A model generated the notes under the pieces. It was not told where the DNA came from. It searched no databases and saw only the letters and a program-made list of their open reading frames with translations. Positions 1,278 to 60,230 of a stretch of 64,000 bases of DNA are shown piece after piece. This DNA is from Candidatus Zambryskibacteria bacterium RIFCSPLOWO2_01_FULL_39_39. GTDB lineage: Bacteria > Patescibacteriota > Minisyncoccia > Phycocordibacterales > WO2-35-19. The stretch covers positions 9,338 to 73,337 of the forward strand of contig MHWB01000013.1 of NCBI GenBank assembly GCA_001823925.1, written 5' to 3'. Numbering within the stretch: position 1 is the first letter of the stretch; every line of letters starts with the position of its first letter. A program made the translations under genes and the position numbers.

Positions 1278-3580
1278 CTCCTTCCTATTTTTTTAGGCTC
1301 TTTTAATATTTCGAGAGCGCGTTCTAGAGTTATTTTATATACATCGTCTGTTTTGAGAGAACGAAAATCTTTTTGGTGGACGATATATGGTCCAAACCTG
1401 CCAATATTGGCAGAGATCATTTCTCCTGTTTCTGGCTGTGGCCCAAGCTCTCTTGGTAAACTCAAATATTTGAGTGCTTCATCCAAAGTAACACTATTTG
1501 GATCTTTATCTTTGGGGATACTTGATCTCCTTGGTTTTTCTTTCTTTTCTTTTTTAGTTTTTTCTTTTGGATTTGGTGCTTCGGATTTTGAATTTTGTCC
1601 CCCCAACTGTACATAAGGCCCAAACCTACCGTCCATTATAAAAACCGGAAGCCCTGTTGCACTGTCAACTCCAATAGGTTCTGCTTCCTTTATTTCAGAA
1701 CCGTCAATATTTCGCATACCCTTGCAATCTGGAAATTTTTCGCAACTCAAAAATTTGCCTCCCTTACCGAGCTTGATTATCATACCTGCGCCACAGATGG
1801 GGCATTTAAGTTTGGGATCGGCGTCTCCTAGGTTAGTGAGTTTGGCCGTCTTTTCCTTTTCTTTTACATCTTTCAAAAATGGTTTATAAAATTCTCGCAG
1901 AGTTGGTTCGTACTCTCTTTTACCTTCTGCAATTTGGTCAAGTTCATCTTCCATTTCGGCAGTGAAGGTGTCGCTTATATAATTTTCAAAATTATTTTCT
2001 AAAAATGTTGAGACGACATCGCCGGTGTCTGTCGGTTTAAGTGTCCGACCATCTTTATCTACATAACCTCTATCTATGATGGTACCGATGATAGAAGCAT
2101 AGGTGCTAGGTCTGCCAATACCCCTTTTTTCCAATTCTTTGATGAGCCCAGCTTCGCTATATCTGTTTGGTGGTTCGGTCTGTTTTTCTTCTTGTTTTAA
2201 ATCTAATAAGGAAAGATTATCTCCTTGTTTAACTTTTGGCAACAAGGTATCCTCACTCTTTGCTTCTGGGTCAGCCATGAGCCAGCCACTTTTTATAACT
2301 CGGGAGCCATTGGCTGCAAAATCTGGGACGGTGGCAATGTCAAAGACGGGCTTTTTGGAAATTTCTTCAAAGCCCGTCTTTGACATTGCGGACACCTGCG
2401 CCGTTATCTTGGTACGCATCATCAAGGCATCTTGCATTTGGGAGGCGACAGCTCTCTGCCATATCAGTTGGTACAACTTCTTTTGATCATCATTTGCGCC
2501 AGCATTCTCTTTTTCAAAATGAGTGGGCCTTATCGCTTCGTGAGCCTCCTGGGCATTTTTGGATTTAGTTTTATAAGTGCGAATTTGGTGAAGTTCTGCT
2601 CCAAATTTTTTTGTTACCACACTTTTTATTTGCCCCAATGCTACAGTCGCCATATTTAAACTATCAGTACGCATATAGGTGATGTGTCCAGCTTCATAAA
2701 GTTTTTGAGCCACCATCATCGTCCGCTTAGGACTAAACCCTAGTCTAGTACTTGCTACTTGTTGTAAAGTAGAGGTGGTAAAAGGGGCTTTGGGCGCTCT
2801 CTTTACTTCGGTCTCGGTCACATCTTTGACAGACCAAACTCCTTCTTTGGCTACATTATAAATTTTATCCGCCTCAATTTTTGTTTTTGGTTCTTCCTCG
2901 CAAAAAGCAGTGAAGGTAGCAATGTCAAGGGCGGGCTTTGAAGAAATTTCCAAAAAGCCCGCCCTTGACATTGCACCCACTTTCAAATTTGCAGAAATAA
3001 CGAAAAATGTCTCTGGTTTGAAAGCTCGTATCTCTCGCTCTTTTTCCATTAGTATTCGCAAAGCTGGGGATTGAACTCGGCCAGCCGAAAGACCGTATCT
3101 GACTTTTTTCCAAATAAGTCCCGATAAGTCATATCCCACCAGTCTATCAAGCACCCTTCTGGCTTCTTGGGCCTTTCTCAAATTTTGATCAATACTTCTG
3201 GGGTGTTTGAGAGCTTCCTCGATCGCTTCCTTGGTAATTTCGTGATAAGTAACTCTGCTAATCTTTTTCTTGCTTCCAAAATCATCTTTAATTATTTCAG
3301 CCAAGTGCCAAGCGATAGCCTCACCTTCTCGGTCGGGGTCGGTCGCGAGCAAAACTTCATCTGCCTTTTTTACAAGAGCTTTTATCTCTGCGACCACCTT
3401 TTCTTTACCCTTTGAAATTTCATAGTGGGGGATAAAGCCACCTTCTATGTCGATGGCTTTTTTATTACTTTTTGGCAGATCACGAATATGGCCGACGCTA
3501 GCTACAACCTCGTATTCACTTCCTATATATTTGCCAATAGTTTTTGCTTTGGCAGGGGATTCTACAATTAATAATTTCAT
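1262..3580 (-). CDS. topA: DNA topoisomerase I
   Basis: 772 aa; N-terminal TOPRIM MKLLIVESPAKAKTIGKYIG, C-terminal Zn-ribbon CPICGAGMII...CEKFPDC; carries two in-frame palindromic insertions (see repeats). Confidence 0.9.
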   Translation of the reverse strand: MKLLIVESPAKAKTIGKYIGSEYEVVASVGHIRDLPKSNKKAIDIEGGFIPHYEISKGKEKVVAEIKALVKKADEVLLATDPDREGEAIAWHLAEIIKDDFGSKKKISRVTYHEITKEAIEEALKHPRSIDQNLRKAQEARRVLDRLVGYDLSGLIWKKVRYGLSAGRVQSPALRILMEKEREIRAFKPETFFVISANLKVGAMSRAGFLEISSKPALDIATFTAFCEEEPKTKIEADKIYNVAKEGVWSVKDVTETEVKRAPKAPFTTSTLQQVASTRLGFSPKRTMMVAQKLYEAGHITYMRTDSLNMATVALGQIKSVVTKKFGAELHQIRTYKTKSKNAQEAHEAIRPTHFEKENAGANDDQKKLYQLIWQRAVASQMQDALMMRTKITAQVSAMSKTGFEEISKKPVFDIATVPDFAANGSRVIKSGWLMADPEAKSEDTLLPKVKQGDNLSLLDLKQEEKQTEPPNRYSEAGLIKELEKRGIGRPSTYASIIGTIIDRGYVDKDGRTLKPTDTGDVVSTFLENNFENYISDTFTAEMEDELDQIAEGKREYEPTLREFYKPFLKDVKEKEKTAKLTNLGDADPKLKCPICGAGMIIKLGKGGKFLSCEKFPDCKGMRNIDGSEIKEAEPIGVDSATGLPVFIMDGRFGPYVQLGGQNSKSEAPNPKEKTKKEKKEKPRRSSIPKDKDPNSVTLDEALKYLSLPRELGPQPETGEMISANIGRFGPYIVHQKDFRSLKTDDVYKITLERALEILKEPKKIGRRWKKT
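2335..2388. repeat. 54-bp palindromic element (TGTCAAAG stem) inserted in frame in topA, encodes MSKTGFEEISKKPVFDIAT
   Basis: tgtcaaagacgggcttt / aaagcccgtctttgaca perfect 17-bp stems around loop ttggaaatttcttcaa. Confidence 0.7.
2920..2973. repeat. Second copy of same palindromic element in topA, opposite orientation, encodes MSRAGFLEISSKPALDIAT
   Basis: tgtcaagggcgggcttt / aaagcccgcccttgaca stems; loop is reverse complement of loop of copy at 2335. Confidence 0.7.
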
Positions 3581-7295: not shown

Positions 7296-8102
7296 ATGCA
7301 TAATACCAGGTATAAAAAAGCCTCTTCTAGGATAAGCAGAAGAAGTGAAGTAAGAAGGTTTTTAAGTTTATTTTTTAAAATAGGGATACCCATCACTTTT
7401 TTGGTCTGTTTGATTTTTCTTTTGCGGGCGGATTTTTTGCAGGTAAAAACTTTTGAAATCTTGGGGGCAGAAGTTATCCAAGTGGCAGAAATCGAAAATA
7501 CTGCTTTGAACTTTACCCTGGGCAATCAGTTTTTTCTGATACCCAAATCAAATCTGTTTTTTTTGAATAAAGAAAAATTAGCATCTGTTTTATTATCAAA
7601 ATTTGGAAGATTAGAGGAAGTGTCCGTGAACAAACACTTTTTAAGTAAAAATATTGAATTAAAGATAGTAGAGAGAAAAGATGACTTTTTTTGGTGTTTG
7701 ATACAGACAGAGTGTTTTTTGATGAGCAAAGATGGGTTGGTCTTTGAATCCTATTCTGCAGAAGCTACGCGAGGCAAGGTAATTTTTGGCGGTATCTTGG
7801 ACGGAGATCCTTTAATGAAAAATTTTGCTACTCCAGAAAAAATGCAAAATTATTCAAATTTAATTAGAGTTTTCAAAGAAGCCGGTTTTGAAGTTTCCTC
7901 TATAAATATAGAATCTTCTGACAAGGCAGTGGCCAAAATTGAAATTGTAGACATAATATTTAATCCAGAGGAGGAGAATCTCTCTCTTACGGCTGAAAAT
8001 GTCGTACTTTTAATAAATGAATTAAAAAGTAAAAATTCCTCCACCACTTTCAATTATATAGATGCTCGTTTTAACAACAAAATTTTTTATAAACTCTACT
8101 GA
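7296..8102 (+). CDS. ftsQ: Cell division protein FtsQ/DivIB-like (POTRA domain)
   Basis: basic N-terminus, one TM helix, then POTRA-like pattern FEILGAEVI...LIPKSNLFFLNKEKLASVLLSKFGRLEEVSVNKHFLSKNIELKIVERK. Confidence 0.5.
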   Translation: MHNTRYKKASSRISRRSEVRRFLSLFFKIGIPITFLVCLIFLLRADFLQVKTFEILGAEVIQVAEIENTALNFTLGNQFFLIPKSNLFFLNKEKLASVLLSKFGRLEEVSVNKHFLSKNIELKIVERKDDFFWCLIQTECFLMSKDGLVFESYSAEATRGKVIFGGILDGDPLMKNFATPEKMQNYSNLIRVFKEAGFEVSSINIESSDKAVAKIEIVDIIFNPEEENLSLTAENVVLLINELKSKNSSTTFNYIDARFNNKIFYKLY

Positions 8103-11287: not shown

Positions 11288-12355
11288 ATGAATTTTTGGA
11301 ATGAAATGAAAAAGCCGATACTTTGTCTCGCGCCATTAGCAGATGTTACTGATGTGGCTTTTAGGCATATTATTGCTAAATATTCGAAAGAAATGTCAAA
11401 GGGCGCCTTCGAAATGCCCCGGTCCCAGAAGGCGCCCTTTGACATTTCTACCTACGTTACTTATACCGAATTTGTTTCGGCCGATGGACTTGTTTTGGCT
11501 CCGGAAACAGGTAGGAGAAGACTCTTAAAAGATTTGGAATATTCTGAAATAGAAAGGCCGATCGTGGCACAACTTTTTAGCAGTAATCCAGAGAATATGA
11601 AAAAAGTTGCTTCTCTTGTTATGGAATTAGGTTTTGATGGTGTAGATATAAATATGGGTTGTCCCGATAAAAGTGTAGAGAAGCAGGGAGCTGGTGCCGC
11701 CCTTATAAAGAACCCAAAGCTTGCAAGAGAAATAATAAGATATGCAAAGACAGGTATAAAAGAAGCAGCAGAGAGGCTGGGTAAAGAAGAAATACCGCTG
11801 TCAGTAAAAACCAGACTTGGTTATAACGATGATGAGTTAGAAAGTTGGTTGCCAGAATTATTGGCGGAAAATCCGGCAGCTATTATTATCCATGCTCGCA
11901 CAAGGAAAGAAATGTCTAAAGTCCCTGCTCGTTGGGAGCGTATCAGACGTGCCGTTGAGATAAGGGATGAAGTGTCAAGGTTCAACCTTGACACTCAAAA
12001 AACTTTAATAATTGGTAATGGAGATGTTTTAGATGTTGCAGATGCAATAAAAAAATGTGAAGAGAGTGGCGCAGACGGGGCCATGCTCGGGAGAGCAGTT
12101 TTTGGCAATCCTTGGCTCTTTTCTACCCACGTGCCGACCGCTTCCGAAAAATTAAAAGTCTTGCTGGAACATATTAAACTTTTTGAAGAAAAATTGGGTG
12201 GGGTAAAAAATTTTGCTGTTATGAAAAAACATTTCAAAGCTTACCTTTCTGGTTTTCCTGTTGGTAGTGATTTTAGACTAAAAGAATTAAGAGATAGGCT
12301 CATGCAAACAAAGGACGCTAAAGATGCGGAGATTTTGTTAAGCGAATACTTATAA
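11288..12355 (+). CDS. dusB: tRNA-dihydrouridine synthase (DusB-like) carrying two in-frame palindromic insertions
   Basis: 355 aa; LAPLADVTDVAFRHI...YTEFVSADGL...DINMGCPDK...IHARTR...GNGDV motifs of Dus family. Confidence 0.8.
   Translation: MNFWNEMKKPILCLAPLADVTDVAFRHIIAKYSKEMSKGAFEMPRSQKAPFDISTYVTYTEFVSADGLVLAPETGRRRLLKDLEYSEIERPIVAQLFSSNPENMKKVASLVMELGFDGVDINMGCPDKSVEKQGAGAALIKNPKLAREIIRYAKTGIKEAAERLGKEEIPLSVKTRLGYNDDELESWLPELLAENPAAIIIHARTRKEMSKVPARWERIRRAVEIRDEVSRFNLDTQKTLIIGNGDVLDVADAIKKCEESGADGAMLGRAVFGNPWLFSTHVPTASEKLKVLLEHIKLFEEKLGGVKNFAVMKKHFKAYLSGFPVGSDFRLKELRDRLMQTKDAKDAEILLSEYL
11391..11447. repeat. 57-bp palindromic element in dusB (20-bp perfect stems aaatgtcaaagggcgccttc, loop gaaatgccccggtccca), encodes MSKGAFEMPRSQKAPFDIS
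   Basis: insertion sits where Dus family has short KYG-to-TEMVSA linker; loop shared with elements at 21781 and 25994. Confidence 0.7.
11970..11994. repeat. Short palindrome agtgtcaagg-ttcaa-ccttgacact inside dusB (encodes VSRFNLDT)
   Basis: perfect 10-bp stems; family member of 4229 copy. Confidence 0.6.
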
Positions 12356-18716: not shown

Positions 18717-19628
18717 TTATTTATTGCCCCGTAAAAAATCTTCGTAAAGCATTTCTTTTTTACCTTCTGGTATTATTTTTAATATTTTTAATTTATCATC
18801 TTCAATTGTGGCATCTGTTATTATAATGCGTTTTTCTTTATTAAAATAATAAGAAGTGGGCCACTCTTCAAAGGCTTTTATTTTAAGCAAATTTTTAAGT
18901 GGATTGTCACTTAAATCAAGAAAGCCATCTTCTTTTTTTATTTTTTGGCAATAAGTTGCTTTATCTTCATTTTGTATTATTGGATCTATTGCTCCCAAGA
19001 GCCATTCTGGTAAAATATGAGCAAATAGTCCTGCTCCCTCTATTGCTAAAATTTTTTCTAATTCTTTTCTGCCGACCTCACCCCATGCCCCTTTGGTGCC
19101 TTGCTCCTCCCCTTGACAAGGGGAGGGGTTGGGGAGAGGTTTTTGAATTACAATAGGTCCTGTATCCATTGCTTCTTCAATCTGCATAATACTTACCCCC
19201 ACTTCCGTATCGTTATTTAAAATCTGACTCTGGATAGGAGAAGCGCCACGATATTTTGGCAACAGAGAAGGGTGGATATTTAAAGTTTTGTGTTTTGGTA
19301 TTTCAAAAATTTCTTTAGGAATTATTTTGCCGTAAGAAGCGACTAAAAAGAGATCCCAATCTCCAAATTTTACTTCGGTATTACGAAGAAATTCTTCTGC
19401 ATTAGAGCCCCGCTCACTTCTTAAGGTTTCTGGATCAAAAACTTCTATATTATTTTTTTGACCCCATACCCTTACTTCATTTGGAGTAAGTATCATCTTT
19501 CTGCCTTTTGGTCTGTCAGGAATTGTTATCAAAAGGTTTGGCAACATACCATGTTGTTTCAATTCGTCCAAAACATAAACAGAAAATCTTGAACTGCCAA
19601 AGAATGCCCAATGTACTTTGTTTATCAT
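18717..19628 (-). CDS. fmt: Methionyl-tRNA formyltransferase with Pro/Gly-rich insertion
   Basis: 303 aa; formyl-transferase N and C domains; insertion PLPNPSPCQGEEQGTKGAWGEVG coded by GC hairpin at 19104-19139. Confidence 0.85.
   Translation of the reverse strand: MINKVHWAFFGSSRFSVYVLDELKQHGMLPNLLITIPDRPKGRKMILTPNEVRVWGQKNNIEVFDPETLRSERGSNAEEFLRNTEVKFGDWDLFLVASYGKIIPKEIFEIPKHKTLNIHPSLLPKYRGASPIQSQILNNDTEVGVSIMQIEEAMDTGPIVIQKPLPNPSPCQGEEQGTKGAWGEVGRKELEKILAIEGAGLFAHILPEWLLGAIDPIIQNEDKATYCQKIKKEDGFLDLSDNPLKNLLKIKAFEEWPTSYYFNKEKRIIITDATIEDDKLKILKIIPEGKKEMLYEDFLRGNK
19104..19139. repeat. GC hairpin ctcctcccctt-gaca-aggggagggg + ttggggagagg inside fmt
   Basis: inverted repeat of CCCTCCCC/GGGGAGGG family. 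Confidence 0.55.
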
Positions 19629-20229: not shown

Positions 20230-22224
20230 CTATAACAAATTATCTGGATCTGTCTTAATCTCAAAGTGGGGAGGTAAAGATTTTAAAATAGAAAAAAGAG
20301 CAGAATCTACCCATTTTTCTTTGGGTATTTTAATGACGGCATTTATGGCAGATTGCTCACCCCTTTTTTCATGAATGGATGGGAAAATGGTGGCGCTATA
20401 ATTTTTATTTTCGGAATTTTCAAACACATTCTTCAACACTTGAGTTTCTTTTCCGACAAAACTTTTAGTGCCTCTCACTGTTATTTTTATAAAAATACTA
20501 AAAGGTGGGTAACTTAAAACCGCGCGATCCTCTATTTCCTTTTTATAAAATTCTATTAAATTGCCACTTCTTGCAAATTCTACAGTTGAATCTTTTGGGT
20601 TTCTGGTCTGTATCAAAAGGTTTTCTTTGGCTATACTTTTGGTTTGTAAAATAAGACGGAAAATTTTTTCTCTGATACGAAAATCAGGAATAGAGAATAG
20701 GGAATCAAAAGAACAAATAGCACTACTTCCCACTTTTTTATAAATATAAGAGAGAGCCATCTCGGTACCCAAAAGTATTGAGCCTTTATTTTCATAAAAG
20801 TTTTTGATTACATTTAAGGCTTTGGCGTTTGTTTCAACAATATCTTTGTGTAATTCAAAAAGATTTATGTTTGGGACACTCTTTCTTAATTCTTCGGCTA
20901 CTCTGTCAATACCAGAACCAAATGCCGCAAGCTTCCAGCTGTGACAATTTTGACAAACTTCTGCCGCGTCTCGTGTTTCGCCACATTGATGACATTTAAA
21001 AACGGCGCCATTTTGGGTACTTTGGTCCGGAGATGTTTTAGTTTTATATAAGATCATAGGAGATGAGCAGTTGAAACATTTTACCTGTTCTCCGCAGTCA
21101 CGGCAGACAGTAACCGACGATAAGCCTTTTCTAGCCGCAAATATAAACATATTAGAACCTTTTTCTATGGTTTTTTTGATTAAATTTAGTAATTCTGGCG
21201 ATATGGTTTTGAATTCTTTTCCTTGCCCCAATTCTTTCAAGTCTATTATGGTCGTTTTGATTTCAAGAGGCATTCGCCATTTGACGTTTTCAAATTCAGA
21301 TACTTCCCCTTGTTTGTATCTGTATAAAGTTTCTATTCTCAAAAAAGAATCTCCAATCACGGTACGGATATTTTTTTTATTAGCCAAAATTTCAGCAAAA
21401 AATCGAAGGTCTATAAAAGGTCGCGATAAAGTTTTCCAACCAGTTTCATTTTCTTTATCTATAATAATGGTGCCGAAATCTAATCTTGGCAAAAATAACC
21501 ATTTGGCTGTGGCTATAATTAATACAGGATGCTTTGTTTCGCATGCCCTTTTCCATTCCTTGATTAAATCCTTTTTCTTCATTTCATTATGAAAAGTGCA
21601 GACAAAGGATTCTATACCACGTTCTAGTTTTTCCTGAGTTTTTCGCACGTTTTCATTTTGAGGTAAGCATAGAAAAACTGATTTTTTCTTAGCAAATTCT
21701 TCCCTGATAAGAGATTTATAAAGATCTAATCTTTCCTCGTTTGGAGCTTGTAAGATAGCAATTTCATTTTTAATACTGTCGTTGCCAAGGACAGTCCTTA
21801 AACTGCCCCGGTCCCAAAGGACTGTCCTTGGCAACTGAAGCAAGTTTGGGTTTTCTAAAATGAAAGAAGGAATAAGTTGGGGAATAATATTGCCTTCTGT
21901 GGCGACAAAATATTTGGCCGTCTCTCTCACCGCTTCCAAGAATTTTTTTTGTAAAAATGGTTTAGCAGTTACGGCTGAAATTTTTTTTAATTGAAAATTT
22001 GCGGATTTTATAGAAAGTTTTGCCTCTGTCACGTCCTTACTTTCTAAAACCAAAGCTGAAACACTTTTTCCTCTAATGTTTATTTTTAACAAAGAACCGG
22101 GCTCTAAATATTTAGGTCCAAAATATGACAGTGACTCTTTACTCAAACCTTTTGAAAGTGGTAGACATTCTATGATAAACATATGCTTTAAGTAAAAAGC
22201 AAAAAGCCTAAAGTAGCAAGTCAT
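20230..22224 (-). CDS. priA: Primosomal protein N' (PriA helicase) with in-frame palindromic insertion
   Basis: 664 aa; helicase core plus Cys4-Cys4 zinc module CRDCGEQVKCFNC...CHQCGE...CQNCHS. Confidence 0.85.
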   Translation of the reverse strand: MTCYFRLFAFYLKHMFIIECLPLSKGLSKESLSYFGPKYLEPGSLLKINIRGKSVSALVLESKDVTEAKLSIKSANFQLKKISAVTAKPFLQKKFLEAVRETAKYFVATEGNIIPQLIPSFILENPNLLQLPRTVLWDRGSLRTVLGNDSIKNEIAILQAPNEERLDLYKSLIREEFAKKKSVFLCLPQNENVRKTQEKLERGIESFVCTFHNEMKKKDLIKEWKRACETKHPVLIIATAKWLFLPRLDFGTIIIDKENETGWKTLSRPFIDLRFFAEILANKKNIRTVIGDSFLRIETLYRYKQGEVSEFENVKWRMPLEIKTTIIDLKELGQGKEFKTISPELLNLIKKTIEKGSNMFIFAARKGLSSVTVCRDCGEQVKCFNCSSPMILYKTKTSPDQSTQNGAVFKCHQCGETRDAAEVCQNCHSWKLAAFGSGIDRVAEELRKSVPNINLFELHKDIVETNAKALNVIKNFYENKGSILLGTEMALSYIYKKVGSSAICSFDSLFSIPDFRIREKIFRLILQTKSIAKENLLIQTRNPKDSTVEFARSGNLIEFYKKEIEDRAVLSYPPFSIFIKITVRGTKSFVGKETQVLKNVFENSENKNYSATIFPSIHEKRGEQSAINAVIKIPKEKWVDSALFSILKSLPPHFEIKTDPDNLL
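21781..21835. repeat. 55-bp palindromic element in priA (stems ttgccaaggacagtcctt, loop aaactgccccggtccca) encoding LPRTVLWDRGSLRTVLGN
   Basis: near-identical to intergenic copy 25994-26048. Confidence 0.75.
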
Positions 22225-25373: not shown

Positions 25374-25991
25374 ATGCATCACGCCAATATCATAATAAGC
25401 AGAGAAGATTGTCGGGATTATGTTTTTGATATTTTAGAAAAAGATTTAAATTTTAATATTAAAGCCAACCCCGATTTTTTGCTTGTAGAAACAGAATCTT
25501 TCAGTATAGATCATGCCAGGGATCTGATAAAATGGTCTATTGGCAAAGCCCTAGTGGGTGAAATAAAAGTTTCCTTGATTATCGTAAAATCTATAACCTT
25601 AGAAGCTCAAAATGCTCTGCTTAAAATTTTGGAAGAATCACCAGAAGGCACTTTTATTTTTATTAGTTTAGAAAATTTGGGGGGAATTTTGCCCACACTT
25701 GTTTCAAGAGTCAGGATTTTAAATTTACACAAGGAAGTTAACAATTTGGAAGATGATGCCCAAAAGTTTTTCTCTTCCAAGATTAAAGACAAACTTTCTG
25801 TCATACGCACTCTTTCAAAAAAAGAAGACAAGAGTGATATAAAAGAACTTATAAAAAATTTAGAGCAAATAGCTTATCAAAATAAGGCGTCGGCAAATCA
25901 TATAAAAAACGTATTAACCGCAAAGATTTTTGCTAGTACCAGGGGGTCTTCCCCCAAGATGCTTTTAGAATGGTTATCAGCCGTGTTATAA
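25374..25991 (+). CDS. holB: DNA polymerase III delta-prime-like subunit (short, no P-loop)
   Basis: 205 aa; QNALLKILEESPEGTFIFISLENLGGILPTLVSRVR resembles HolB sensor region. Confidence 0.55.
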   Translation: MHHANIIISREDCRDYVFDILEKDLNFNIKANPDFLLVETESFSIDHARDLIKWSIGKALVGEIKVSLIIVKSITLEAQNALLKILEESPEGTFIFISLENLGGILPTLVSRVRILNLHKEVNNLEDDAQKFFSSKIKDKLSVIRTLSKKEDKSDIKELIKNLEQIAYQNKASANHIKNVLTAKIFASTRGSSPKMLLEWLSAVL

Positions 25992-25993
25992 TA

Positions 25994-26048
25994 GTTGCCA
26001 AGGACAGTCCTTAAAATGCCCCGGTCCCAAAGGACTGTCCTTGGCAAC
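25994..26048. repeat. Intergenic copy of 55-bp palindromic element (holB-frr spacer)
   Basis: ttgccaaggacagtccttaaaatgccccggtcccaaaggactgtccttggcaa; 1 nt different from priA copy. Confidence 0.75.
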
Positions 26049-26052
26049 TTAA

Positions 26053-26601
26053 ATGTTTGATTTTTCGGAATTAAAAATAAAAAGCAAAGACATAGAAAAC
26101 TGGCTTAGCAAAGAGCTTTCGGTTATTCGTACTGGCAGAGCTACCCCGGTTATTCTTGATTTTGTACAAGTAGAAGCTTATGGCTCAAAGATGTCTATCA
26201 AAGAATTGGCCAATATTTTAGTGGAAGACGCTAAGACGGTGAGAATAGAGCCGTGGGATTTGAGCGTTGGCAGAAGTATTGAAAAGGCAATAGGTTCTTC
26301 CAACTTAGGACTTTCTGTTGCCCCATTTGAAAAAGGGTTAAGAATTATTTTTCCCGAGCTAACTGCCGAAAGAAGAGAGCAGTTTGTCAAAGTGGTTGGT
26401 AAACAACTTGAAGAGGCCAAAGTATCACTGCGAAATCTACGTGATAAAACTTGGAAGGCGATTGAAGAAAAAGAAAAATCTGGTGGTATGGGTGAAGACG
26501 ATAAGTTTAGAATGAAAGAAGAAATGCAGAAGATAATAGATGATACAAGTAGAAAGCTGGAAGAGTCGGCAGATAAAAAAGAGAAGGAGATAAAGATTTA
26601 A
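26053..26601 (+). CDS. frr: Ribosome recycling factor
   Basis: 182 aa; typical Frr sequence LSVIRTGRATPVILDFVQVEAYG. Confidence 0.9.
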   Translation: MFDFSELKIKSKDIENWLSKELSVIRTGRATPVILDFVQVEAYGSKMSIKELANILVEDAKTVRIEPWDLSVGRSIEKAIGSSNLGLSVAPFEKGLRIIFPELTAERREQFVKVVGKQLEEAKVSLRNLRDKTWKAIEEKEKSGGMGEDDKFRMKEEMQKIIDDTSRKLEESADKKEKEIKI

Positions 26602-26606
26602 AGCAA

Positions 26607-27794
26607 ATGACCTTTTTAATTTTTGTAATTATTTTAGGGATTTTAGTGTTTGTCCACGAGCTTGGACACTTTTTGGCTGCCAAAAAGGCCAATGTCCGTG
26701 TAGACGAATTTGGATTTGGTTATCCACCCAGAGCTTTAAAAATAGGTGAGAAGTGGGGGACGCTTTTTACTTTAAATTGGATTCCGTTTGGTGGTTTTGT
26801 TAAAATTTTTGGCGAGAATTATGAGAAAGATGAAATAAGCCCACAGGAAAGCTCTTCTTCAGAAAGTCCTCGGGTCTCCCCGCAGAGCGGGGCCAGACTT
26901 TCTTCAGAAGACTTTCCTGTGGGCAGGAATTTTACACAAGTTTCTAAGAAGTGGCAGGCTACTATATTGGTAGCTGGAGTTACTTTTAACATTATTTTTG
27001 CTTGGTTTCTTTTTTCTTTAGGATTCGTGATTGGTCTACCAACTTCGGTTGACAATGATTTTGGCGCTGTTGTCAAAAACCCAACTCTCACTGTCGTGGG
27101 GCTCATCCAAGATTTTCCAGCTCAAAAATCTGGTCTTAAAACTGGCGATAAAATAAAAGAAATTTCTCTTTCGAATGGCAAAATGTTGCAAAATTTAAAT
27201 CCAGAAGAAGTGTCTGATTTTATAAATAATTCTGAAGGTGAAATTGAAATACAGATTGATCGGGGAGGAGAAATTTTAAATTTTGGAATTACCCCAAAGA
27301 CAGAGATAGTAGAAAATCCCCCGAGCTCTTTAGGGCAGGAAAGGAAAATTATTGGTATCAATATGGATATGGTGGGCACTCTTTCTCTGCCAATTCATAA
27401 GGCTATTTATCAGGGTGGCAAAACCACTTTAAAACTTTCTTATCTCACAGTTTTTGGGATTGCAAATTTAATTCTTGACGCGGTGAAGGGTGAAGCCGAT
27501 ATTTCGGAAATAGCGGGTCCAGTGGGTATCGTCGGTTTGGTGGGGGATGCGACACGACTCGGTTTTTCATATCTCATCACTTTTACGGCTCTTATTTCTA
27601 TAAACTTGGCAATTATAAATTTAGTACCCTTTCCAGCACTCGACGGTGGTCGGATCCTTTTTGTGGCCATCGAAGGTATAACTAAAAGAAAAATTAACCC
27701 AAAAGTAGCCAACATTGCAAACACTGTCGGCTTTGCTCTCCTCATCACCCTAATGCTCATCGTCACCTACCGCGATATTTTGAAATTGTTTTGA
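26607..27794 (+). CDS. rseP: RIP metalloprotease RseP (site-2 protease, M50) with PDZ domain and in-frame palindromic insertion
   Basis: 395 aa; HELGHF, PDZ region, NLVPFPALDGGRIL. Confidence 0.85.
   Translation: MTFLIFVIILGILVFVHELGHFLAAKKANVRVDEFGFGYPPRALKIGEKWGTLFTLNWIPFGGFVKIFGENYEKDEISPQESSSSESPRVSPQSGARLSSEDFPVGRNFTQVSKKWQATILVAGVTFNIIFAWFLFSLGFVIGLPTSVDNDFGAVVKNPTLTVVGLIQDFPAQKSGLKTGDKIKEISLSNGKMLQNLNPEEVSDFINNSEGEIEIQIDRGGEILNFGITPKTEIVENPPSSLGQERKIIGINMDMVGTLSLPIHKAIYQGGKTTLKLSYLTVFGIANLILDAVKGEADISEIAGPVGIVGLVGDATRLGFSYLITFTALISINLAIINLVPFPALDGGRILFVAIEGITKRKINPKVANIANTVGFALLITLMLIVTYRDILKLF
26839..26925. repeat. ~87-bp imperfect palindrome inside rseP encoding Ser-rich peptide ISPQESSSSESPRVSPQSGARLSSEDFPVG
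   Basis: cccacaggaaag...tcttcttcagaaagtc...ctcccc / ggggcc...gactttcttcagaagactttcctgtggg arms. Confidence 0.6.
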
Positions 27795-36445: not shown

Positions 36446-36910
36446 ATGGAAGAAAAAGAATATTTAACAAAAGAAAAATTTAAGGCGCTTGGAGATGAAC
36501 TTGAATATCTCAAAAAAGTTAAGCGTAAAGAAGTTGCCGAACAACTGGAATATACCAAGTCTTTGGGTGATTTGTCAGAAAATGCCGAATATCACGAGGT
36601 GCGTGATATGCAGGGGGTGGTAGAAGATAGAATTCAAAAAGTAGAATCCATTCTTAAAAATGCTACCATTGTTTCTTCACATGGAAACGAAGCTGTTGTT
36701 GTTGGCTCGGTGGTGACTGTAGCTAAAAATGGAGACAAAGATCATAAAATTTATACTATTGTTGGTGGCGAAGAGTCGGATCTTTCCTCTAATAAAATCT
36801 CGGTGCACTCTCCTTTTGGTGAGGCGGTGATGAGTAAGAAAAAAGGTGACTCTTTTACCTACAATGCACCCTCTGGCCCTATCACTTATAAAATAATTGA
36901 GATAAAATAA
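36446..36910 (+). CDS. greA: Transcription elongation factor GreA
   Basis: 154 aa; coiled-coil N domain with DLSENAEY, FKBP-like C domain. Confidence 0.9.
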   Translation: MEEKEYLTKEKFKALGDELEYLKKVKRKEVAEQLEYTKSLGDLSENAEYHEVRDMQGVVEDRIQKVESILKNATIVSSHGNEAVVVGSVVTVAKNGDKDHKIYTIVGGEESDLSSNKISVHSPFGEAVMSKKKGDSFTYNAPSGPITYKIIEIK

Positions 36911-36914
36911 TCGA

Positions 36915-38507
36915 GTGAGACTAGATATAGAAAAAGAAAGTAAACCAGGAGAACATTGGAGTGAAACGGTGGCGCAACAAGTAAAAAAAATATTTCCCAA
37001 CTCTCCGACTTATACCACTGCTGCCGGCATTAGTCCTTCCGGAGTGGTTCATTTTGGCAACTTTAGAGATGTGATAACCTCTTACGCCGTTTATCTACAA
37101 CTAAAATCTCAAGGACTCAACGCTAAATTTATTTTTTCTTGGGACAATTTTGATCGTCTTCGTAAGGTGCCGGCAGGTGTTCCAGAAAATTTTAGCCAAT
37201 ATATTGGTATGCCTCTCTCGGCGATCCCAAGTCCCAAGGAGGGATACAGTTCTTATGCAGAATATTTTCAAAAACCCTTTGAAGAAGCTATGAAAGAATT
37301 AAGTATTGATCTTGAATACAGATATCAAACTGATGAATATAAAAGTGGCCGATATGACGAATTTATTTTTTTGGCCTTAAAAAAAAGAAAAGAAATTGCC
37401 AAAATTTTACTATCTTTAATGACTGAAAAAGGCAAACAAGAAGGAGGAATAGTGGAAGCTGAATATATAGAAAATTATTATCCGATTTCAGTTTATTCCC
37501 ATTTTACCGGTAAAGACTCAACTAAAGTACTTTCTTTTGATGGGAAAAGTTCTATCACTTATCATTGTATAGAAAGTAATAAAACTGAAACTATAGATTT
37601 ATCAAGAGATAGAATTGTCAAACTGGCATGGAAAGTTGACTGGCCGATGAGATGGGGGGTTGAAAACATTGTTTTTGAACCTGGTGGCCATGATCATGCT
37701 TCACCGGGTGGCAGTTTCGATGTTTCTAGTGTTATTGCTAAAGAGATTTTTGGTATTAAGGAGCCAATTTTTGCTGAATATAAATTTGTCGGCATTCAAG
37801 GTGGCGGAGTAAAGATGTCTGGTTCTAAAGGTAATGCCATTTCTCCGACTGAACTTTTGGAAATATATGAGCCGACACTTTTAAAATGGCTTTATATGCG
37901 GAAAAATCCGAGTCAAGCTTTTAGTTTGGCTTTTGATACCGAAATTTATCGACAGTATGATGAGTTTGATAAAGGGGTAAGTTTACCAGAGGAAAGTATG
38001 GCTCTCAAATTGAGTAAAAATCCAAAATATAATAATCCCATTCCTTTTAAGCAGGCAGTGGCTTTAGGCCAGATCACTCAATGGAATGAAGAAAAAATAA
38101 AACATTTAATTTCTGATTTAGGCGTCAATTATGATGAAAAATCGATTCAAGTTAGATTACCTCGTGCTAAAAATTGGCTAGAAAAATATAATCCAGAGGA
38201 AGTCATAAAATTGTTGGATGTTATTAATGTATCTTATATTGTCACTTTGGATGAAAAAACTAAAGAGCAAATAAAAAAATTAAAAAAAGAATTAACCAAA
38301 GAATATTCCTCTATTAAGGAGCTAGAGCTTTTGGTTTATTCTATTCCTAAAGATCCGACTAAAACTGATAAAGAAAATGCGCCGGCTCAAAAAGAATTTT
38401 TCAAACACATCTACAACCTCCTTATCGGTCGTGATGCTGGTCCTAGACTTTCTACTTTCCTCTGGGCGGTTGATCGCGAAAAAGTTTTGAAGTTATTAAA
38501 TATTTAA
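36915..38507 (+). CDS. lysK: Class I lysyl-tRNA synthetase (LysK-type)
   Basis: 530 aa; HFGN (HIGH-like), SWDNFDRLRKVP, KMSGSKGN (KMSKS). Confidence 0.7.
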   Translation: MRLDIEKESKPGEHWSETVAQQVKKIFPNSPTYTTAAGISPSGVVHFGNFRDVITSYAVYLQLKSQGLNAKFIFSWDNFDRLRKVPAGVPENFSQYIGMPLSAIPSPKEGYSSYAEYFQKPFEEAMKELSIDLEYRYQTDEYKSGRYDEFIFLALKKRKEIAKILLSLMTEKGKQEGGIVEAEYIENYYPISVYSHFTGKDSTKVLSFDGKSSITYHCIESNKTETIDLSRDRIVKLAWKVDWPMRWGVENIVFEPGGHDHASPGGSFDVSSVIAKEIFGIKEPIFAEYKFVGIQGGGVKMSGSKGNAISPTELLEIYEPTLLKWLYMRKNPSQAFSLAFDTEIYRQYDEFDKGVSLPEESMALKLSKNPKYNNPIPFKQAVALGQITQWNEEKIKHLISDLGVNYDEKSIQVRLPRAKNWLEKYNPEEVIKLLDVINVSYIVTLDEKTKEQIKKLKKELTKEYSSIKELELLVYSIPKDPTKTDKENAPAQKEFFKHIYNLLIGRDAGPRLSTFLWAVDREKVLKLLNI

Positions 38508-42806: not shown

Positions 42807-42831
42807 ATAAAAATAAATCGGGACTAATTAT

Positions 42832-42892
42832 TTTGCCCCTTACCTTAGACAAGGTGAGGGGCAGTTCCGCTTTAGCGGAACGGGGTGGGGTC
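42832..42892. repeat. Structured GC-rich element: ccccttacctt-agac-aaggtgagggg + cag + gttccgc-ttta-gcggaac + ggggtggggtc
   Basis: same two-hairpin architecture and conserved single-stranded tracts as element at 55089-55140, with compensatory changes in second stem. Confidence 0.5.
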
Positions 42893-42923
42893 TGAAAAGA
42901 TGGGATAAAACTTTGAAGGTGAC

Positions 42924-49149: not shown

Positions 49150-49155
49150 TTTATA

Positions 49156-50778
49156 ATGTTTAAAATAGAGCAAAAAATCTCGAAGTCACTGGGTCGAGCT
49201 GGTGTTTTAATTACTCCACATGGGGAGGTACAAACACCTAGCTTTGTAGCTGTCGGTACTAAAGCAACGGTCAAATCTCTCTCACCCGAACAGGTCAAAG
49301 AGGCTGGGTCGCAAATAGTTTTGGCCAATACCTATCATCTTTATTTAGAACCCGGAGAAAAAATTGTGAAAGAAGCGGGGGGCTTGGGTAAGTTTATGAA
49401 TTGGCAAGGTCCAACTATGACAGACTCGGGCGGTTTTCAAGCTTTTTCTTTGGGGGTGGCTTATGGAAGTAAGCTTAGTAAATTTATTGGCAATGAGTCT
49501 CCAAAACAAGAAGAGATAGACGAAGCTTATAGAGAAGAGCGAGATAAGAAAGCAAAGATTACCGAAGATGGGGTGGAATTTAAATCTATTATAGATGGTA
49601 GCAAACATTTTTTTACTCCAGAAAAATCAATGCAAATTCAAAGTGACCTAGGAGCTGATATTATTTTTGCTTTTGATGAGTGTACTTCACCACATGCACC
49701 CAAGGAGTATTTGAAGGAAGCTTTGGCGCGGACTCATCGTTGGGCAGAAAGGTGTTTGATTGAATACAGAAAAAATCACCCCACCCCGACCCTCCCCGAA
49801 GGGGAGGGTGCCCAAAGGGGAACTTTCGGTTATCACACAACAGATTCGGTTACTTGGAAAAATCTTCAACAAAGAGTTTTAGAAATGAGAGAAAAACCTA
49901 CTCCCGCTGAAAATATGCTATGGCAACATTTAAGAAAAAATTCAACAAAATATCATTTTAGAAGACAACATATAGTGGGAAATTTTATTGTTGATTTTGT
50001 TTGCCTAGAAAAATCATTAGTAATTGAAGTTGATGGAGATATCCATGATTACCAAAAGGAAGAAGATAAATCCAGAACAGAGTTTTTAAATAAATTAGGT
50101 TTTTATATTTTAAGATTTAAGAACGAAGAGGTAGTAGAGAATATTTTAAAAGTATTAGAGGGTATAAAGGTTGGTCTTAAAGCCCTCCCCTTTGGGGAGG
50201 GTTTGGGTGGGGTTTCTTCCCAAGCTCTCTTTGGCATAGTCCAAGGTGGCAGGTATGAAGATTTGAGGAAAGAAAGCGCTAAGGTGATAGGAGAGATGGA
50301 TTTTGATGGTTTTGGCATTGGAGGCTCCTTTGTTAAAGAAGATATGGCGACAGCGGTCAAATGGGTGAGTGGAATTTTGCCAACTGATAAACCTAGGCAT
50401 CTTTTGGGGGTGGGAGAGCCTGTTGACATTATTTTTGGTGTTGAAAACGGATGCGACACATTTGACTGTGTCGCCGCGACACGTATGGCGCGCAATGGCA
50501 CACTCTATACCAAACGAGGTAAAATAAATATCAACAACGCCAAGTATAAAAATATTTTTGAGCCGATTGAAGAGGGGTGCAAGTGTTATACTTGTAAAAA
50601 TTATACCTGTTGCTACCTTTCCCACCTTTTTCGCTCCAAAGAAATGTTGGCCGCTACTTTAGCATCTATTCATAATCTTTATTTTATAAATTCTCTGGTT
50701 GCAGAGATGAGAGAATCAATTTTAAACGAAAATTTTTTTGATTTTAAAGAAAATTTTTTAAGAGATTATAAAGTTTAG
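49156..50778 (+). CDS. tgt: Queuine tRNA-ribosyltransferase carrying an in-frame ~145-aa insertion that contains a DUF559 endonuclease domain
   Basis: 540 aa; TGT N-terminal (LITPHGEVQTPSFVAVGT, LANTYHL, TDSGGFQ), then insertion between ERCLIEYRKN and QALFGIVQGG, then zinc site CKCYTCKNYTCCYLSH. Confidence 0.8.
   Translation: MFKIEQKISKSLGRAGVLITPHGEVQTPSFVAVGTKATVKSLSPEQVKEAGSQIVLANTYHLYLEPGEKIVKEAGGLGKFMNWQGPTMTDSGGFQAFSLGVAYGSKLSKFIGNESPKQEEIDEAYREERDKKAKITEDGVEFKSIIDGSKHFFTPEKSMQIQSDLGADIIFAFDECTSPHAPKEYLKEALARTHRWAERCLIEYRKNHPTPTLPEGEGAQRGTFGYHTTDSVTWKNLQQRVLEMREKPTPAENMLWQHLRKNSTKYHFRRQHIVGNFIVDFVCLEKSLVIEVDGDIHDYQKEEDKSRTEFLNKLGFYILRFKNEEVVENILKVLEGIKVGLKALPFGEGLGGVSSQALFGIVQGGRYEDLRKESAKVIGEMDFDGFGIGGSFVKEDMATAVKWVSGILPTDKPRHLLGVGEPVDIIFGVENGCDTFDCVAATRMARNGTLYTKRGKININNAKYKNIFEPIEEGCKCYTCKNYTCCYLSHLFRSKEMLAATLASIHNLYFINSLVAEMRESILNENFFDFKENFLRDYKV
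49777..50212 (+). mobile_element. DUF559-encoding insertion element with ~35-bp GC-rich hairpin terminal inverted repeats, integrated in frame within tgt
   Basis: left end accccaccccgaccctccccgaaggggaggg is approx reverse complement of right end ccctcccctttggggagggtttgggtggggt; internal 49915-50160 encodes MLWQHLRKNSTKYHFRRQHIVGNFIVDFVCLEKSLVIEVDGDIH...LRFKNEEV (DUF559). Confidence 0.55.
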
Positions 50779-50783: not shown

Positions 50784-51635
50784 ATGATTTACAATCTTTA
50801 TAAACAGCGGGGGGAGACACCACTAGAATGTATCCAAAGATTTGCCAGAAAAACTCCAGAATTAAAGGGAGAGAAGATGACCTATTTGGGGAGGTTGGAC
50901 CCTTTGGCCGAAGGGGTTTTGCTTATGGCTAGTGGCATTGACGTAAAGAGGAAAGAGGAGTTTTTGGGGTTGGATAAGGAATATGATTTTATTTCTATTT
51001 TTGGCTTTGCTACCGACACCTATGATGTGCTTGGTAAAATTGTAAGAGTAGAAAAAGTGCCCATTCGACAAGCTCAGGGTGAAAATGCTAATACCATTTT
51101 CGAAAATGAAATTAGGAAAGTGGCGTTAATTTATGAAGGAGAAAGAGAACAGAAATACCCAACGTATTCTTCTAAAATTATAGCCAATAAAAAAACCTCA
51201 CCCCTCGCTTCGCGTAGCCCTCTCCTTGTTCAGGAGAGGGAAGGCGTGGAGTCAGGGTCTTTGGGTTTTCCCTCCCCTGAGCAAGGGGAGGGTGGGGTGG
51301 GGTTTTCTAAAAAAATTACTATACATAAAATTCAATTTCATAAATTAGAAACTCTAAACAATAAAGAACTTTTTGGTAGGCTTCTTTCAGATATTTCAAA
51401 AGTAAATGGTGATTTCAGACAGCATGAAATTTTGATTTTATGGAAAGAAATTTTACTTAATTCGGGTGCGCCCCGGAGTTATTTTTTGGGTAGGTTTAGC
51501 GCTCATGTCTCAAGTGGCACTTATATCCGCGGTTTGGTAAACGATATAGGCAATACTTTGGGTTGTGGGGCCACCACTCTTTCTATCAAAAGGACAAGGG
51601 TTGGGGATTACAAAATTGAAGACAGTATAAAATAA
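50784..51635 (+). CDS. truB: tRNA pseudouridine(55) synthase TruB-like with Pro/Gly-rich hairpin-encoded insertion
   Basis: 283 aa; LGRLDPLAEGVLLMA catalytic Asp motif, C-terminal SSGTYIRGLVNDIGNTLGCGATTLSIKRTRVG. Confidence 0.7.
   Translation: MIYNLYKQRGETPLECIQRFARKTPELKGEKMTYLGRLDPLAEGVLLMASGIDVKRKEEFLGLDKEYDFISIFGFATDTYDVLGKIVRVEKVPIRQAQGENANTIFENEIRKVALIYEGEREQKYPTYSSKIIANKKTSPLASRSPLLVQEREGVESGSLGFPSPEQGEGGVGFSKKITIHKIQFHKLETLNNKELFGRLLSDISKVNGDFRQHEILILWKEILLNSGAPRSYFLGRFSAHVSSGTYIRGLVNDIGNTLGCGATTLSIKRTRVGDYKIEDSIK
51199..51306. repeat. Tandem GC hairpins (ccctctcc-ttgttca-ggagaggg and ccctcccc-tgagcaa-ggggaggg) + ggtggggtggggtttt inside truB
   Basis: encodes SPLASRSPLLVQEREGVESGSLGFPSPEQGEGGVGF; same family as tgt TIRs. 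Confidence 0.6.
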
Positions 51636-54442: not shown

Positions 54443-55081
54443 TTAGCTTCTATTTTGCAGGGCGTTCCTCAATGTATCCTGATCTGCGTATTCAAGCTCT
54501 GTACCCATGGAAAGTCCCTTACCTAAATGAGTTATTTTTGTCTTATTTTTTTCTACTAGTGGTATCAAAAGTTTTTCTACATAATCTGCCGTATTTTCCC
54601 CATCTGGATTCCAGTTAACGCCCAAAATTATTTCTCTTAGTCGTGCCGAAGCATTCTGCGAAGGCGGGTTTATCCTCCTCTCAATAAAAATTTTAAGTTC
54701 TTTTACTCTTATCCTTTTTTCTGGTTCTTTTTCTAAGATGGGGACTGAGCCTCCAAGCACAAAATAGATGCCTCTGTAGCCTCCATTTTTCTCTACCGAT
54801 TCCAAATCCACATCTCTTTGTACCAACATAAGCACGGAGCTATCCCTAGTCTGGTCGGAACAAATTTTACATAAACTTGTTTTATTATTATTTTTTTGAA
54901 AAAATCTCCTGCAATCGGCACACATCACTACATCGTTTTTTAATTCCAAAATATTTTGAGAGAGATCTTCTAAGGTGCCATTGGCGCGAGTAAGTAGATA
55001 GTAGACAAAGCGTCTAGCCTGCCGAGGCCCTATCCCCGGAAACTCTGAAAATATTTTTATTAATTTTTCTATAGAATTCAT
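54443..55081 (-). CDS. recR: Recombination protein RecR
   Basis: 212 aa; HhH FPGIGPRQARR, C4 zinc finger, Toprim. Confidence 0.9.
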   Translation of the reverse strand: MNSIEKLIKIFSEFPGIGPRQARRFVYYLLTRANGTLEDLSQNILELKNDVVMCADCRRFFQKNNNKTSLCKICSDQTRDSSVLMLVQRDVDLESVEKNGGYRGIYFVLGGSVPILEKEPEKRIRVKELKIFIERRINPPSQNASARLREIILGVNWNPDGENTADYVEKLLIPLVEKNKTKITHLGKGLSMGTELEYADQDTLRNALQNRS

Positions 55082-55088
55082 TTTTTTC

Positions 55089-55140
55089 TTTTTCCCTTCA
55101 CCTTCGCAAGGTGAGGGGCAGTTTTCCGTAAGGAAAACGA
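55089..55140. repeat. Second copy of structured GC-rich element: cccttcacctt-cgc-aaggtgagggg + cag + ttttccg-taa-ggaaaac + gaggtggggtc
   Basis: architecture and single-stranded tracts identical to 42832 element; second stem differs by compensatory substitutions. Confidence 0.5.
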
Positions 55141-55150
55141 GGTGGGGTCG

Positions 55151-59289: not shown

Positions 59290-59370
59290 AAGATTTCCCC
59301 CTTTCCTCCATAGTATGTCAAAAATCTACTTGAGATTTCTGAGGGGTATTATAACTAAGTGGATTATTTT

Positions 59371-59408
59371 TGTCAATACATTGACATTGTAATAAAAAAA
59401 TATATAAT
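59371..59408 (+). promoter_or_regulatory. Consensus sigma70 promoter TTGACA-16-TATAAT overlapped by palindrome TGTCAATACATTGACA (candidate operator)
   Basis: -35 59381-59386, -10 59403-59408, RBS AAGGGAG before ATG 59436. Confidence 0.55.
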
Positions 59409-59435
59409 ACAGATAGAAAAAAGGGAGAACATTTC

Positions 59436-60170: not shown

Positions 60171-60230
60171 CCGAGTAGAAAACAACCCCAAGACCATATG
60201 GCCCTGGGGTTTTTGTATCCATCTAGGAAA

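Follow-up and report, generated by a model that had tools for sequence, protein, structure and literature searches.

The closest described counterparts of the element reported here are the Rickettsia palindromic elements (RPEs; Ogata et al. 2000 as cited in PMC10969869), which are about 100-150 bp long and confined to Rickettsia, within the Alphaproteobacteria. This work concerns a near-perfect 86-nt palindrome translated in frame within rseP, the gene for a site-2 protease, in a 64,000-nt stretch (hereafter the window) of contig MHWB01000013.1 from Candidatus Zambryskibacteria bacterium RIFCSPLOWO2_01_FULL_39_39 (assembly GCA_001823925.1, positions 9,338 to 73,337), a member of the Patescibacteria, or candidate phyla radiation (CPR). 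RPEs share with this element their form, as short palindromic repeats of several families in a small, reduced genome, with no transposase of their own, and their placement, as in-frame insertions in unrelated housekeeping genes that are translated as extra surface peptides compatible with function. Like RPEs, the window element is a hairpin-forming palindrome (-55.8 kcal/mol, z = -7.44) with dispersed in-frame copies, 59 of 84 matches to its apex lying in long open reading frames (ORFs). However, it is 86 bp in length. Its host belongs to the CPR, and it is not counted as a member of an RPE family but is likened to RPEs by mode of action. Unlike them, it also lacks a single conserved peptide or preferred frame, being read in three frames and on the reverse strand at the rseP site and elsewhere; and three of its features are not described for RPEs in the review cited (PMC10969869), namely an apex module common to copies with widely different, covarying stems, the repeated occupation of one protein loop by different families, and nested deletion derivatives.

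Other palindromic repeats resemble the element in fewer respects. Repetitive extragenic palindromic sequences (REPs) and the bacterial interspersed mosaic elements (BIMEs) are 20-40 bp long, essentially extragenic, tagged by GTAG or CGTC at one end and associated with REP-associated tyrosine transposases (RAYTs), and are thought to be mobilised in trans via single-stranded hairpins (PMC3733652). They too are small dispersed hairpins in which the stems vary and a short part is conserved, but the window element is an intragenic sequence of 86 nt, from a family found mostly in ORFs, with termini reading GCCC.../...GGGC in place of a GTAG or CGTC tag, and is not a REP. [quoted passage not shown] The likeness here lies in being non-autonomous, shorter than 300 bp, bounded by inverted-repeat ends, folded as a hairpin and sometimes intragenic with in-frame fusions; yet the outermost arms are the part that varies most between copies and the centre is the most conserved, no target-site duplication is evident, and there is no known cognate insertion sequence. 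The element is not demonstrably a MITE. Finally, palindromes of up to 284 bp in the mitochondrial genes of Nematomorpha, seemingly generated locally within genes (PMC6649704), are also long near-perfect inverted repeats with both arms translated, and raise the same question of palindromy versus coding constraint. These, like mitochondrial GC clusters and 'byp' elements, are organellar and eukaryotic, whereas the window element is part of a dispersed sequence family whose copies have an apex in common.

Set beside these systems, the element is best read as an RPE-like selfish hairpin repeat that would have been retained in a permissive loop. It is apparently undescribed in CPR/Patescibacteria: full-text literature searches found no description of in-frame palindromes in these bacteria, although absence there is no proof of novelty. 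We consider it likely that the palindrome is one copy of a dispersed hairpin repeat family proliferating in CPR/Patescibacteria, RPE-like in kind, which is tolerated in a loop of RseP and whose encoded peptide is a by-product. Copies would persist where function survives, either in intergenic positions or, in frame and without stop codons, in permissive surface loops of housekeeping proteins. The rseP copy lies in the loop that joins the conserved PFGGFVKI strand region, downstream of the HExxH helix, to the following transmembrane (TM) helix, and its Ser/Pro-rich, disordered peptide would reflect the DNA sequence rather than being an adapted protein segment.

The host ORF encodes a protein matching Pfam Peptidase_M50 (2.6e-52, residues 6-382) and PDZ (6.7e-06), with Aquifex aq_1964 and E. 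coli RseP as relatives in the PDB (1e-34 to 1e-37), and with homologs annotated as the regulated intramembrane proteolysis (RIP) metalloprotease RseP in Candidatus Zambryskibacteria, other homologs being assigned to Paceibacterota. Residues H17, E18 and H21 of the first catalytic motif, and L345, D346 and G347 of the second (PFPALDGG), are invariant in an alignment of 30 orthologs. The palindrome is translated without a stop codon, contributing roughly 29-30 extra residues rich in Ser and Pro. A first-pass annotation of the window proposed an insertion of about 30 amino acids after the HExxH/TM1 region and before the following TM helix, and this is borne out by comparison with the Aquifex protein and with the close orthologs that have the shortest loops. 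At 86 nt the element is not a multiple of three, and it is the total length of the insertion, not the palindrome itself, that preserves the frame. In an AlphaFold2 model built with 30 orthologs (mean predicted local distance difference test score, pLDDT, of 76), residues 74-103 score below 50 and are coil with no secondary structure; the strands flanking the insert and the TM2 helix are well modelled. The loop follows the membrane-reentrant beta-hairpin and, going by published RseP topology, presumably faces the cytoplasm. Most simply, the model suggests that the insert is a tolerated, disordered loop of RseP. The identical protein, insert included, recurs in at least 20 contigs and in four GenBank proteins from metagenome-assembled genomes (MAGs) of Candidatus Zambryskibacteria, and a 93% identical copy of the insert occupies the same site in an independent NCBI MAG (L081); an assembly artefact is therefore excluded.

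At the level of DNA, the first-pass annotation located the palindrome correctly but gave it 87 bp (26839-26925), one base too many at its end: it comprises 86 nt (26839-26924), and base 26925 lies outside it. The reverse complementarity that it reported between the arms is evident, extending to all 13 positions of the outer arms and 88% of the 16-nt inner arms (Table 1). The folding energy of the single strand compares with -29.3 +/- 3.6 kcal/mol in 200 dinucleotide shuffles, none of which folded as well, and in a scan of 90-nt windows the rseP palindrome ties as the second-strongest fold in the 64 kb. Its G+C content is 0.56, against 0.387 across the window.

The family was defined by scanning metagenome contigs for the exact pattern AAAGTCCTCGGGTC-N14-20-CCAGACTTT, which imposes invariance on its 23 specified bases. 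This returned 84 matches on 81 metagenome stretches, every one forming the tip of a long hairpin (about -18 to -78 kcal/mol, the weakest being cut by a contig end). The 59 matches within ORFs of at least 120 aa comprise 43 in the sense and 16 in the antisense orientation, and the hosts identified with Pfam include RecG, MnmA, Tgt, PolA, UvrA, DnaE, RNase R (at two sites), a Mur ligase, Dus, transketolase, RecJ, KsgA, UvrB, RecN, a TraG-like protein and a peptidoglycan-binding protein, about 17 different gene families in all. Just two matches are in rseP (L140, L148), and each of them runs opposite to the copy in the window. On several contigs there are two copies, and L143 has both in one mnmA. 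A copy in an RNase R gene from another metagenome (L109) is about 85% identical to the window element over its full length by hand alignment, including the outer stem (GCCCAGCAGGAAAG, against GCCCACAGGAAAG in the window), and hence the repeat is the entire 86-nt unit, not just the apex. Copies L106 and L099, in unrelated genes, are also close matches over the whole 86 nt, outer stem included, and L103 and L143 have similar outer stems at different host sites. Three to four of the six reading frames are open per copy, compared with none or one in shuffled versions.

The first-pass annotation had suggested searching for further copies, and these were found in the metagenome contigs but not in the window itself: an outer-arm search, blastn-short with the whole element and a search for the apex at up to three mismatches yielded no second copy of the family within the 64 kb. 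A one-mismatch match to an outer arm (38455-38467), with adjoining likeness to the 3' arm (38436-38467, CCTAGACTTTCT..ACTTTCCTCTGGGC), was rejected as an element remnant and attributed to chance, because the segment encodes the C-terminus of the product of ORF 36906-38507, whose motif AGPRLSTFLWA(V/I)DR is kept in two orthologs, one of them distant. A phage or viral origin was also rejected, the apex pattern having zero matches in IMG/VR contigs. Separately, an apex subfamily whose stems are AT-rich (TCAAAATnAAAATTTTGC...) is found upstream of the transfer-messenger RNA (tmRNA) gene, 34-43 nt from its 5' end, at eight metagenome loci, in the same orientation as the tmRNA in four and opposite in four. 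This hairpin may be associated with a leader, promoter or terminator, or may be an orthologous old insertion.

The rseP site has been occupied by more than this one family. Short loops, which the first-pass annotation ascribed to orthologs in general, are found in distant orthologs and in a minority of close ones: in Aquifex RseP (PDB 9j82) the GE(E/N) and TM2 blocks are 10 residues apart, compared with 40 in the window protein, and more distant Parcubacteria have the compact loop GENPDEESISGPDSxRSF. However, among 120 close orthologs (58-74% identical), 79 have a loop of at least 25 aa containing one or other insert, the length measured from Y72 to N108 being 7-70 aa (median 34); in some, with loops of 7-13 aa, the site is essentially empty. 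The alignment of orthologs, which the same annotation had put forward as a check, reveals a variable loop, with the insert absent from Aquifex RseP and not conserved in RseP of unrelated bacteria. Besides the empty sites, at least six recurring and mutually unrelated families of insert peptide occur, typified by SPQESSSSESPRV..RLSSEDFPVG (that of the window), SLRSQDATHISLQEHS, EQKHTVPALGHKDKALGTVVFVP, QKSTDISLLKNSSCS..SQGI with or without FQSFDSENLELSIS, ESLELKAESK..SSKLQALS, and PSPLQGEGVG. The window family accounts for about 23 of the 120, in any frame or orientation and, recurring both here and in unrelated genes, is dispersed rather than specific to rseP.

Read as DNA, all ten distinct long inserts fold as hairpins: the window element at -55.8 kcal/mol, L081 at -49.2, L084 at -49.3, L005 at -31.9, L086 at -39.3, L087 at -37.2, L088 at -52.2, L089 (two hairpins) at -48.4, L004 at -27.7, and a frame-preserving, AT-rich, decayed copy (L082/L083, P0035) at -20.7. 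None of the three short-loop orthologs L001-L003 has a hairpin fold at this site. When the loop is left out of the alignment, the resulting neighbour-joining tree shows the insert families thoroughly intermingled, which we read as many gains, losses or replacements, to which no exact count can be attached because the tree is not well resolved. The L088 insert belongs to a different family from that of the window, with other copies in L001, L027, L038 and L054 and in the fmt gene on the L088 contig itself; therefore more than one dispersed family has used the rseP loop. Two further observations were made at rseP loci. In L080, from position 10127, the same loop of a Kaiserbacteria RseP holds an insertion that exceeds 100 aa and is internally repetitive (GGTRVVMLENSTGGEEADGRRSEA twice); and in the related genome L088 (7736-9429) a cassette like a diversity-generating retroelement, with bAvd and an RVT_1 reverse transcriptase, lies between holB and frr, just upstream of rseP.

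It is the DNA that is conserved rather than the peptide, because three reading frames and both orientations of the core are in use among RseP orthologs. The core GAA AGT CCT CGG GTC encodes ESPRV in the window, L081 and L084; shifted by one position it is KVLGS in L005, P0041, P0119 and other P-series orthologs; the third frame gives KSSGS in P0039; and the reverse-strand element is read as KVWPS..TRGLF in P0094, P0064, L140 and L148. These readings bear on whether the Ser/Pro-rich peptide is itself an adaptive linker or regulatory segment of RseP, with the palindromic DNA incidental. The insert is indeed always in frame, its loop adjoins the active-site region, and related peptides (ESPRV..RLSSEDFPxG) occur in several orthologs. 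Nevertheless, an adaptive peptide seems very unlikely: three frames and both strands yield unrelated peptides at the one site, the same DNA is found in about 20 unrelated proteins, the segment is predicted to be disordered, and the loop tolerates lengths from 7 to 70 aa, including sites that are essentially empty.

Copies at the rseP site also differ in size. In L172 (P0010) and L171 (P0013) the outer stem GCCCGCAG/CTGCGGGC is kept, yet it encloses 22 nt and 4 nt, respectively, rather than 70, such that hairpins of 20, 38 and 86 nt with one outer stem are found at this position, their interiors all congruent modulo 3. Because L172 keeps right-arm-like sequence, the series would represent hairpin-stimulated internal deletions, and not growth. 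Intra-strand template switching can create palindromes, and the element could in principle have formed in place, through template switching or fold-back synthesis of local rseP sequence, without ever being a copy of a repeat. The graded hairpins, and the outermost stems that differ between copies while being perfectly paired, would fit such an origin. Against it, other organisms have close matches to the full 86 nt, with the outer stem, in unrelated genes (L109, L106, L099), outer stems are common to different host sites (L103, L143), the host ORFs show the dispersed copies to be no fragments of rseP, and L172, with its full right arm, appears to be a deletion derivative that reflects decay. 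Formation in place is thus largely refuted, and we give it hardly any credence. A derivation of the outer stems from the host by inverted target duplication was likewise rejected, similar stems being found at different sites (L103 vs L143; L109, L106 and L099 vs the window).

Between copies, complementarity of the arms is maintained as their sequences change. The outer stems are GCCCACAGG/CCTGTGGGC in the window, GCCCTCAGG/CCTGAGGGC in L081 and GCCCGCAGA/TCTGCGGGC in L084, with position 5 being A-T in the window, T-A in L081 and G-C in L084, L171 and L172; the tip stem covaries in the same way (CCCCGC/GCGGGG, CCTGCC/GGCAGG, CCGTCC/GGACGG). Across 73 distinct aligned copies there are 446 compensatory double-change cells, against 194 +/- 12.5 after shuffling (0 of 500 shuffles reaching 446) and at most 277 in slid-register controls. 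When the two arms are aligned with each other, a bulge of one base recurs on the 5' arm, following AAAG, as does an internal loop of 2-3 nt adjoining the apex; a bulge (C or A) at the position matching 26852 is present in most coding-type copies elsewhere. Outside the apex and bulge, the outer stems are variable yet almost perfectly paired.

Such features would be expected if the hairpin were a functional nucleic-acid module recruited at many loci, whether a single-stranded DNA or RNA site for protein binding or an mRNA structure tuning translation, stability or co-translational membrane insertion, with the peptide as its price. In keeping with this, stem complementarity is preserved by compensatory changes, the helices on either side of the internal loop CTCGGGTC / CCA both covary, the bulge is conserved, copies within ORFs favour the sense strand by 43:16, and the tmRNA-upstream subfamily lies at a fixed distance at eight loci. 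Furthermore, the rseP hairpin follows the first TM/beta region and precedes TM2, where a translational pause could matter. However, the asymmetric apex occurs in both orientations at orthologous rseP, Mur ligase and MnmA sites, and there is therefore no general strand-specific RNA role. Stem mismatches in the host sense comprise 36 A.C and 10 G.U, which is opposite to selection for an mRNA hairpin, a weak signal that comes partly from one recurrent inner-arm position. Many close RseP orthologs have no hairpin or unrelated ones, and decayed and deleted copies are tolerated. The element has no match in Rfam 15 at gathering score, a permissive E-value returning only microRNA-precursor noise (at most 19 bits, against thresholds of 72-97), and two tRNAs were the sole Rfam matches in the whole window. 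A passing likeness of GAAAGTCC.CGGG to conserved region I (CR-I) of RNase P is unsupported by any Rfam match, and roles as an intrinsic terminator or promoter were rejected, the hairpin having neither a terminator-like tail nor a notable promoter. Overall we judge a functional module to be the serious alternative, but an unlikely explanation of the family.

Strong GC-rich hairpins in coding regions are also substrates of programmed bypassing, as in phage T4 gene 60 and the Magnusiomyces mitochondrial 'byp' systems, and the element might likewise go untranslated, through ribosomal bypass or removal from the mRNA. Were it skipped, there would be no pressure for an open frame or for a multiple of three, whereas 59 of the 84 copies lie in uninterrupted long ORFs, stop codons are strongly depleted in copies, and the interiors of the rseP series (4, 22 and 70 nt) agree modulo 3. 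We find this explanation barely plausible.

We return to the reading of the palindrome as a tolerated copy of a dispersed repeat, and several observations count against it. Firstly, a relic that is purely neutral would not be expected to keep perfect complementarity through compensatory change, for which some further process is required. Secondly, an invariant internal loop between covarying helices, together with a conserved bulge, resembles a functional protein-binding RNA or DNA motif, although the search pattern itself imposes invariance on the 23 apex bases, and the fixed position upstream of tmRNA hints at a function for at least some copies. Thirdly, signs of mobility are missing: no transposase was found by Pfam in ten ORFs of the window, mostly in its GC-rich end (58-64 kb), no genome-wide RAYT search having been made; inspection of the 12-nt flanks of 66 distinct copies, whose ends are not exactly fixed, gave no direct repeat indicative of target-site duplication; every member of the 90% cluster of the window RseP has the identical insert, with no polymorphism for its presence; and the 64 kb of the source genome holds only one copy of the family. 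Fourthly, the neighbour-joining tree is poorly resolved at 60-75% identity, and some apparent re-insertions may represent vertical inheritance with rapid divergence. As neither a transposase, nor a target-site duplication, nor a with/without polymorphism was found, mobility is drawn from the distribution of copies. In addition, no empty host site was present among the Mur ligase loci examined, and the flanks of RseP orthologs are too diverged to define insertion boundaries.

The element would then be mobile or copied in trans by an enzyme, or spread as its copies undergo gene conversion. In L114 and L123, whose Mur ligases are closely related, the copies lie in opposite orientations and have different outer stems. 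Gene conversion could work in either orientation, the arms being inverted repeats, and would thereby explain the flipped apices and replaced stems at one host site. The insert is probably neutral, or nearly so, for RseP function, and the loop would be a hot spot through its permissiveness, with hairpin remnants possibly attracting, or recombining with, new copies. A more far-reaching proposal, which we hold tentatively and think rather improbable, is that these elements constitute an undescribed CPR hairpin class in which recognition or function resides in the short conserved apex (helix, asymmetric internal loop, helix), hairpin-templated copying or conversion keeps the arms perfectly complementary, and elements preferentially enter or replace existing hairpins, giving rise to 'hairpin nests' in the loops of RseP, Tgt, Mur ligase and MnmA, and upstream of tmRNA. 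If so, it would imply either a new mobilisation chemistry, for instance one in which an HUH-type enzyme, or another that is specific for single strands, acts in trans, or else a new DNA or RNA signal that acts in cis, as well as a general source of protein-length variation in ultra-small genomes.

Table 1. Positions of the rseP hairpin, its host gene and other hairpin features (window coordinates, unless preceded by a locus name)
Feature	Position	Strand	Basis or remark
rseP, site-2 / RIP zinc metalloprotease, 395 aa	26607-27794	+	ORF; Pfam and homolog names
HELGH zinc-binding motif, H17-H21, in TM1	26655-26669	+	Upstream of insert
Whole variable RseP loop, E73-N108	26823-26930	+	Between GENY and FTQVSKKWQ blocks; 120-ortholog alignment
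Encoded peptide S78-G106, SPQESSSSESPRVSPQSGARLSSEDFPVG	26838-26924	+	Translation
Complete 86-nt hairpin element	26839-26924	+	Inverted repeats and fold energy
Outer stem 5' arm, GCCCACAGGAAAG	26839-26851	+	13/13 complementary to 26912-26924
Single bulged base C, 5' arm	26852	+	Minimum free energy (MFE) structure
Inner 5' arm	26853-26862	+	TCTTCT pairs with 26906-26911, TC is one side of a 2x2 internal loop; MFE structure
AG opening the apex-closing helix	26861-26862	+	Pairs with CT 26902-26903; MFE structure
Apex module AAAGTCCTCGGGTC-N16-CCAGACTTT, 39 nt	26863-26901	+	Own tip stem CCCCGC/GCGGGG
Inner 3' arm	26902-26911	+	CT to AG 26861-26862, TC internal loop, AGAAGA to 26853-26858; MFE structure
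Outer stem 3' arm, CTTTCCTGTGGGC	26912-26924	+	Inverted-repeat search
tmRNA-upstream hairpins	L094:685-725; L104:2557-2597; L117:366-406; L122:4533-4573		
tmRNA-upstream hairpins, continued	L150:144-184; L156:916-956; L158:1086-1124; L159:1066-1106		
topA pair, 56-nt palindromes	2334-2389; 2919-2974		topA on minus strand
TGCCCCGGTCCCA family	11389-11449; 21781-21835; 25993-26049; L148 about 8020-8095		L148 copy in another genome
CCCTCCCC..GGGGAGGG type, in frame	truB 51211-51300; fmt 19061-19150		Also in tgt
Tgt (queuine tRNA-ribosyltransferase) ORF	49150-50778		
GC-rich hairpins in tgt	near 49787-49820; near 50180-50215		
CCCTTCACC..GGTGAGGGG type	42831-42920; 55081-55170		Similar to the preceding type; lies beyond long ORFs

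The rseP palindrome is not the only one in the window, and its description in the first-pass annotation as a third palindromic family using in-frame insertion was apt, several families being present in window genes. Strong in-frame palindromes also occur in topA (two), priA, truB, tgt (two), fmt and dus. Those of topA have central 20-nt segments that are reverse complements of each other, and stems that differ by compensated changes (AAAGACGGGC vs AAGGGCGGGC), making them look like a flipped-loop pair. Of all folds in the window, that of the truB copy is the strongest (-61.6 kcal/mol). A second hairpin family is built in the same way as the rseP element, with differing, compensated stems about the conserved 13-nt loop core TGCCCCGGTCCCA; its copies in the window are hosted by dus, priA and the gap between ORF 25374-25991 and frr (26053-26601). 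The Tgt ORF contains a DUF559/Vsr-like endonuclease domain (aa 238-341) within the TGT fold, flanked by two CCCTCCCC...GGGGAGGG hairpins, and in the Tgt of L093 a hairpin of the rseP-element apex family lies upstream of the same conserved LFGIVQGG motif. Peptides encoded by the GC-rich window hairpins (PSPEQGEGG) resemble rseP-loop inserts of other genomes, among them P0016, P0018 and P0078. The ORFs of a GC-rich block at 58000-64000 (0.44-0.52, against 0.387) have no Pfam matches other than a weak HATPase_c_3, and this block may be a foreign island or a defence locus.

In-frame selfish palindromes in essential genes have previously been tied largely to Rickettsia, and several families are now found in the CPR, a huge and uncultured share of bacterial diversity with tiny, gene-dense genomes. 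This suggests that in-frame palindromes generally result when repeats proliferate in genomes with little intergenic space. The inserts inflate and diversify CPR proteins, the RseP loop alone varying between 7 and 70 aa, and they confound sequence alignment, the assignment of orthologs and the prediction of structures, while the GC-rich hairpins may break assemblies. The questions raised by this family are how the arms stay complementary despite drift, why the same loops are repeatedly occupied, and what recognises the apex.

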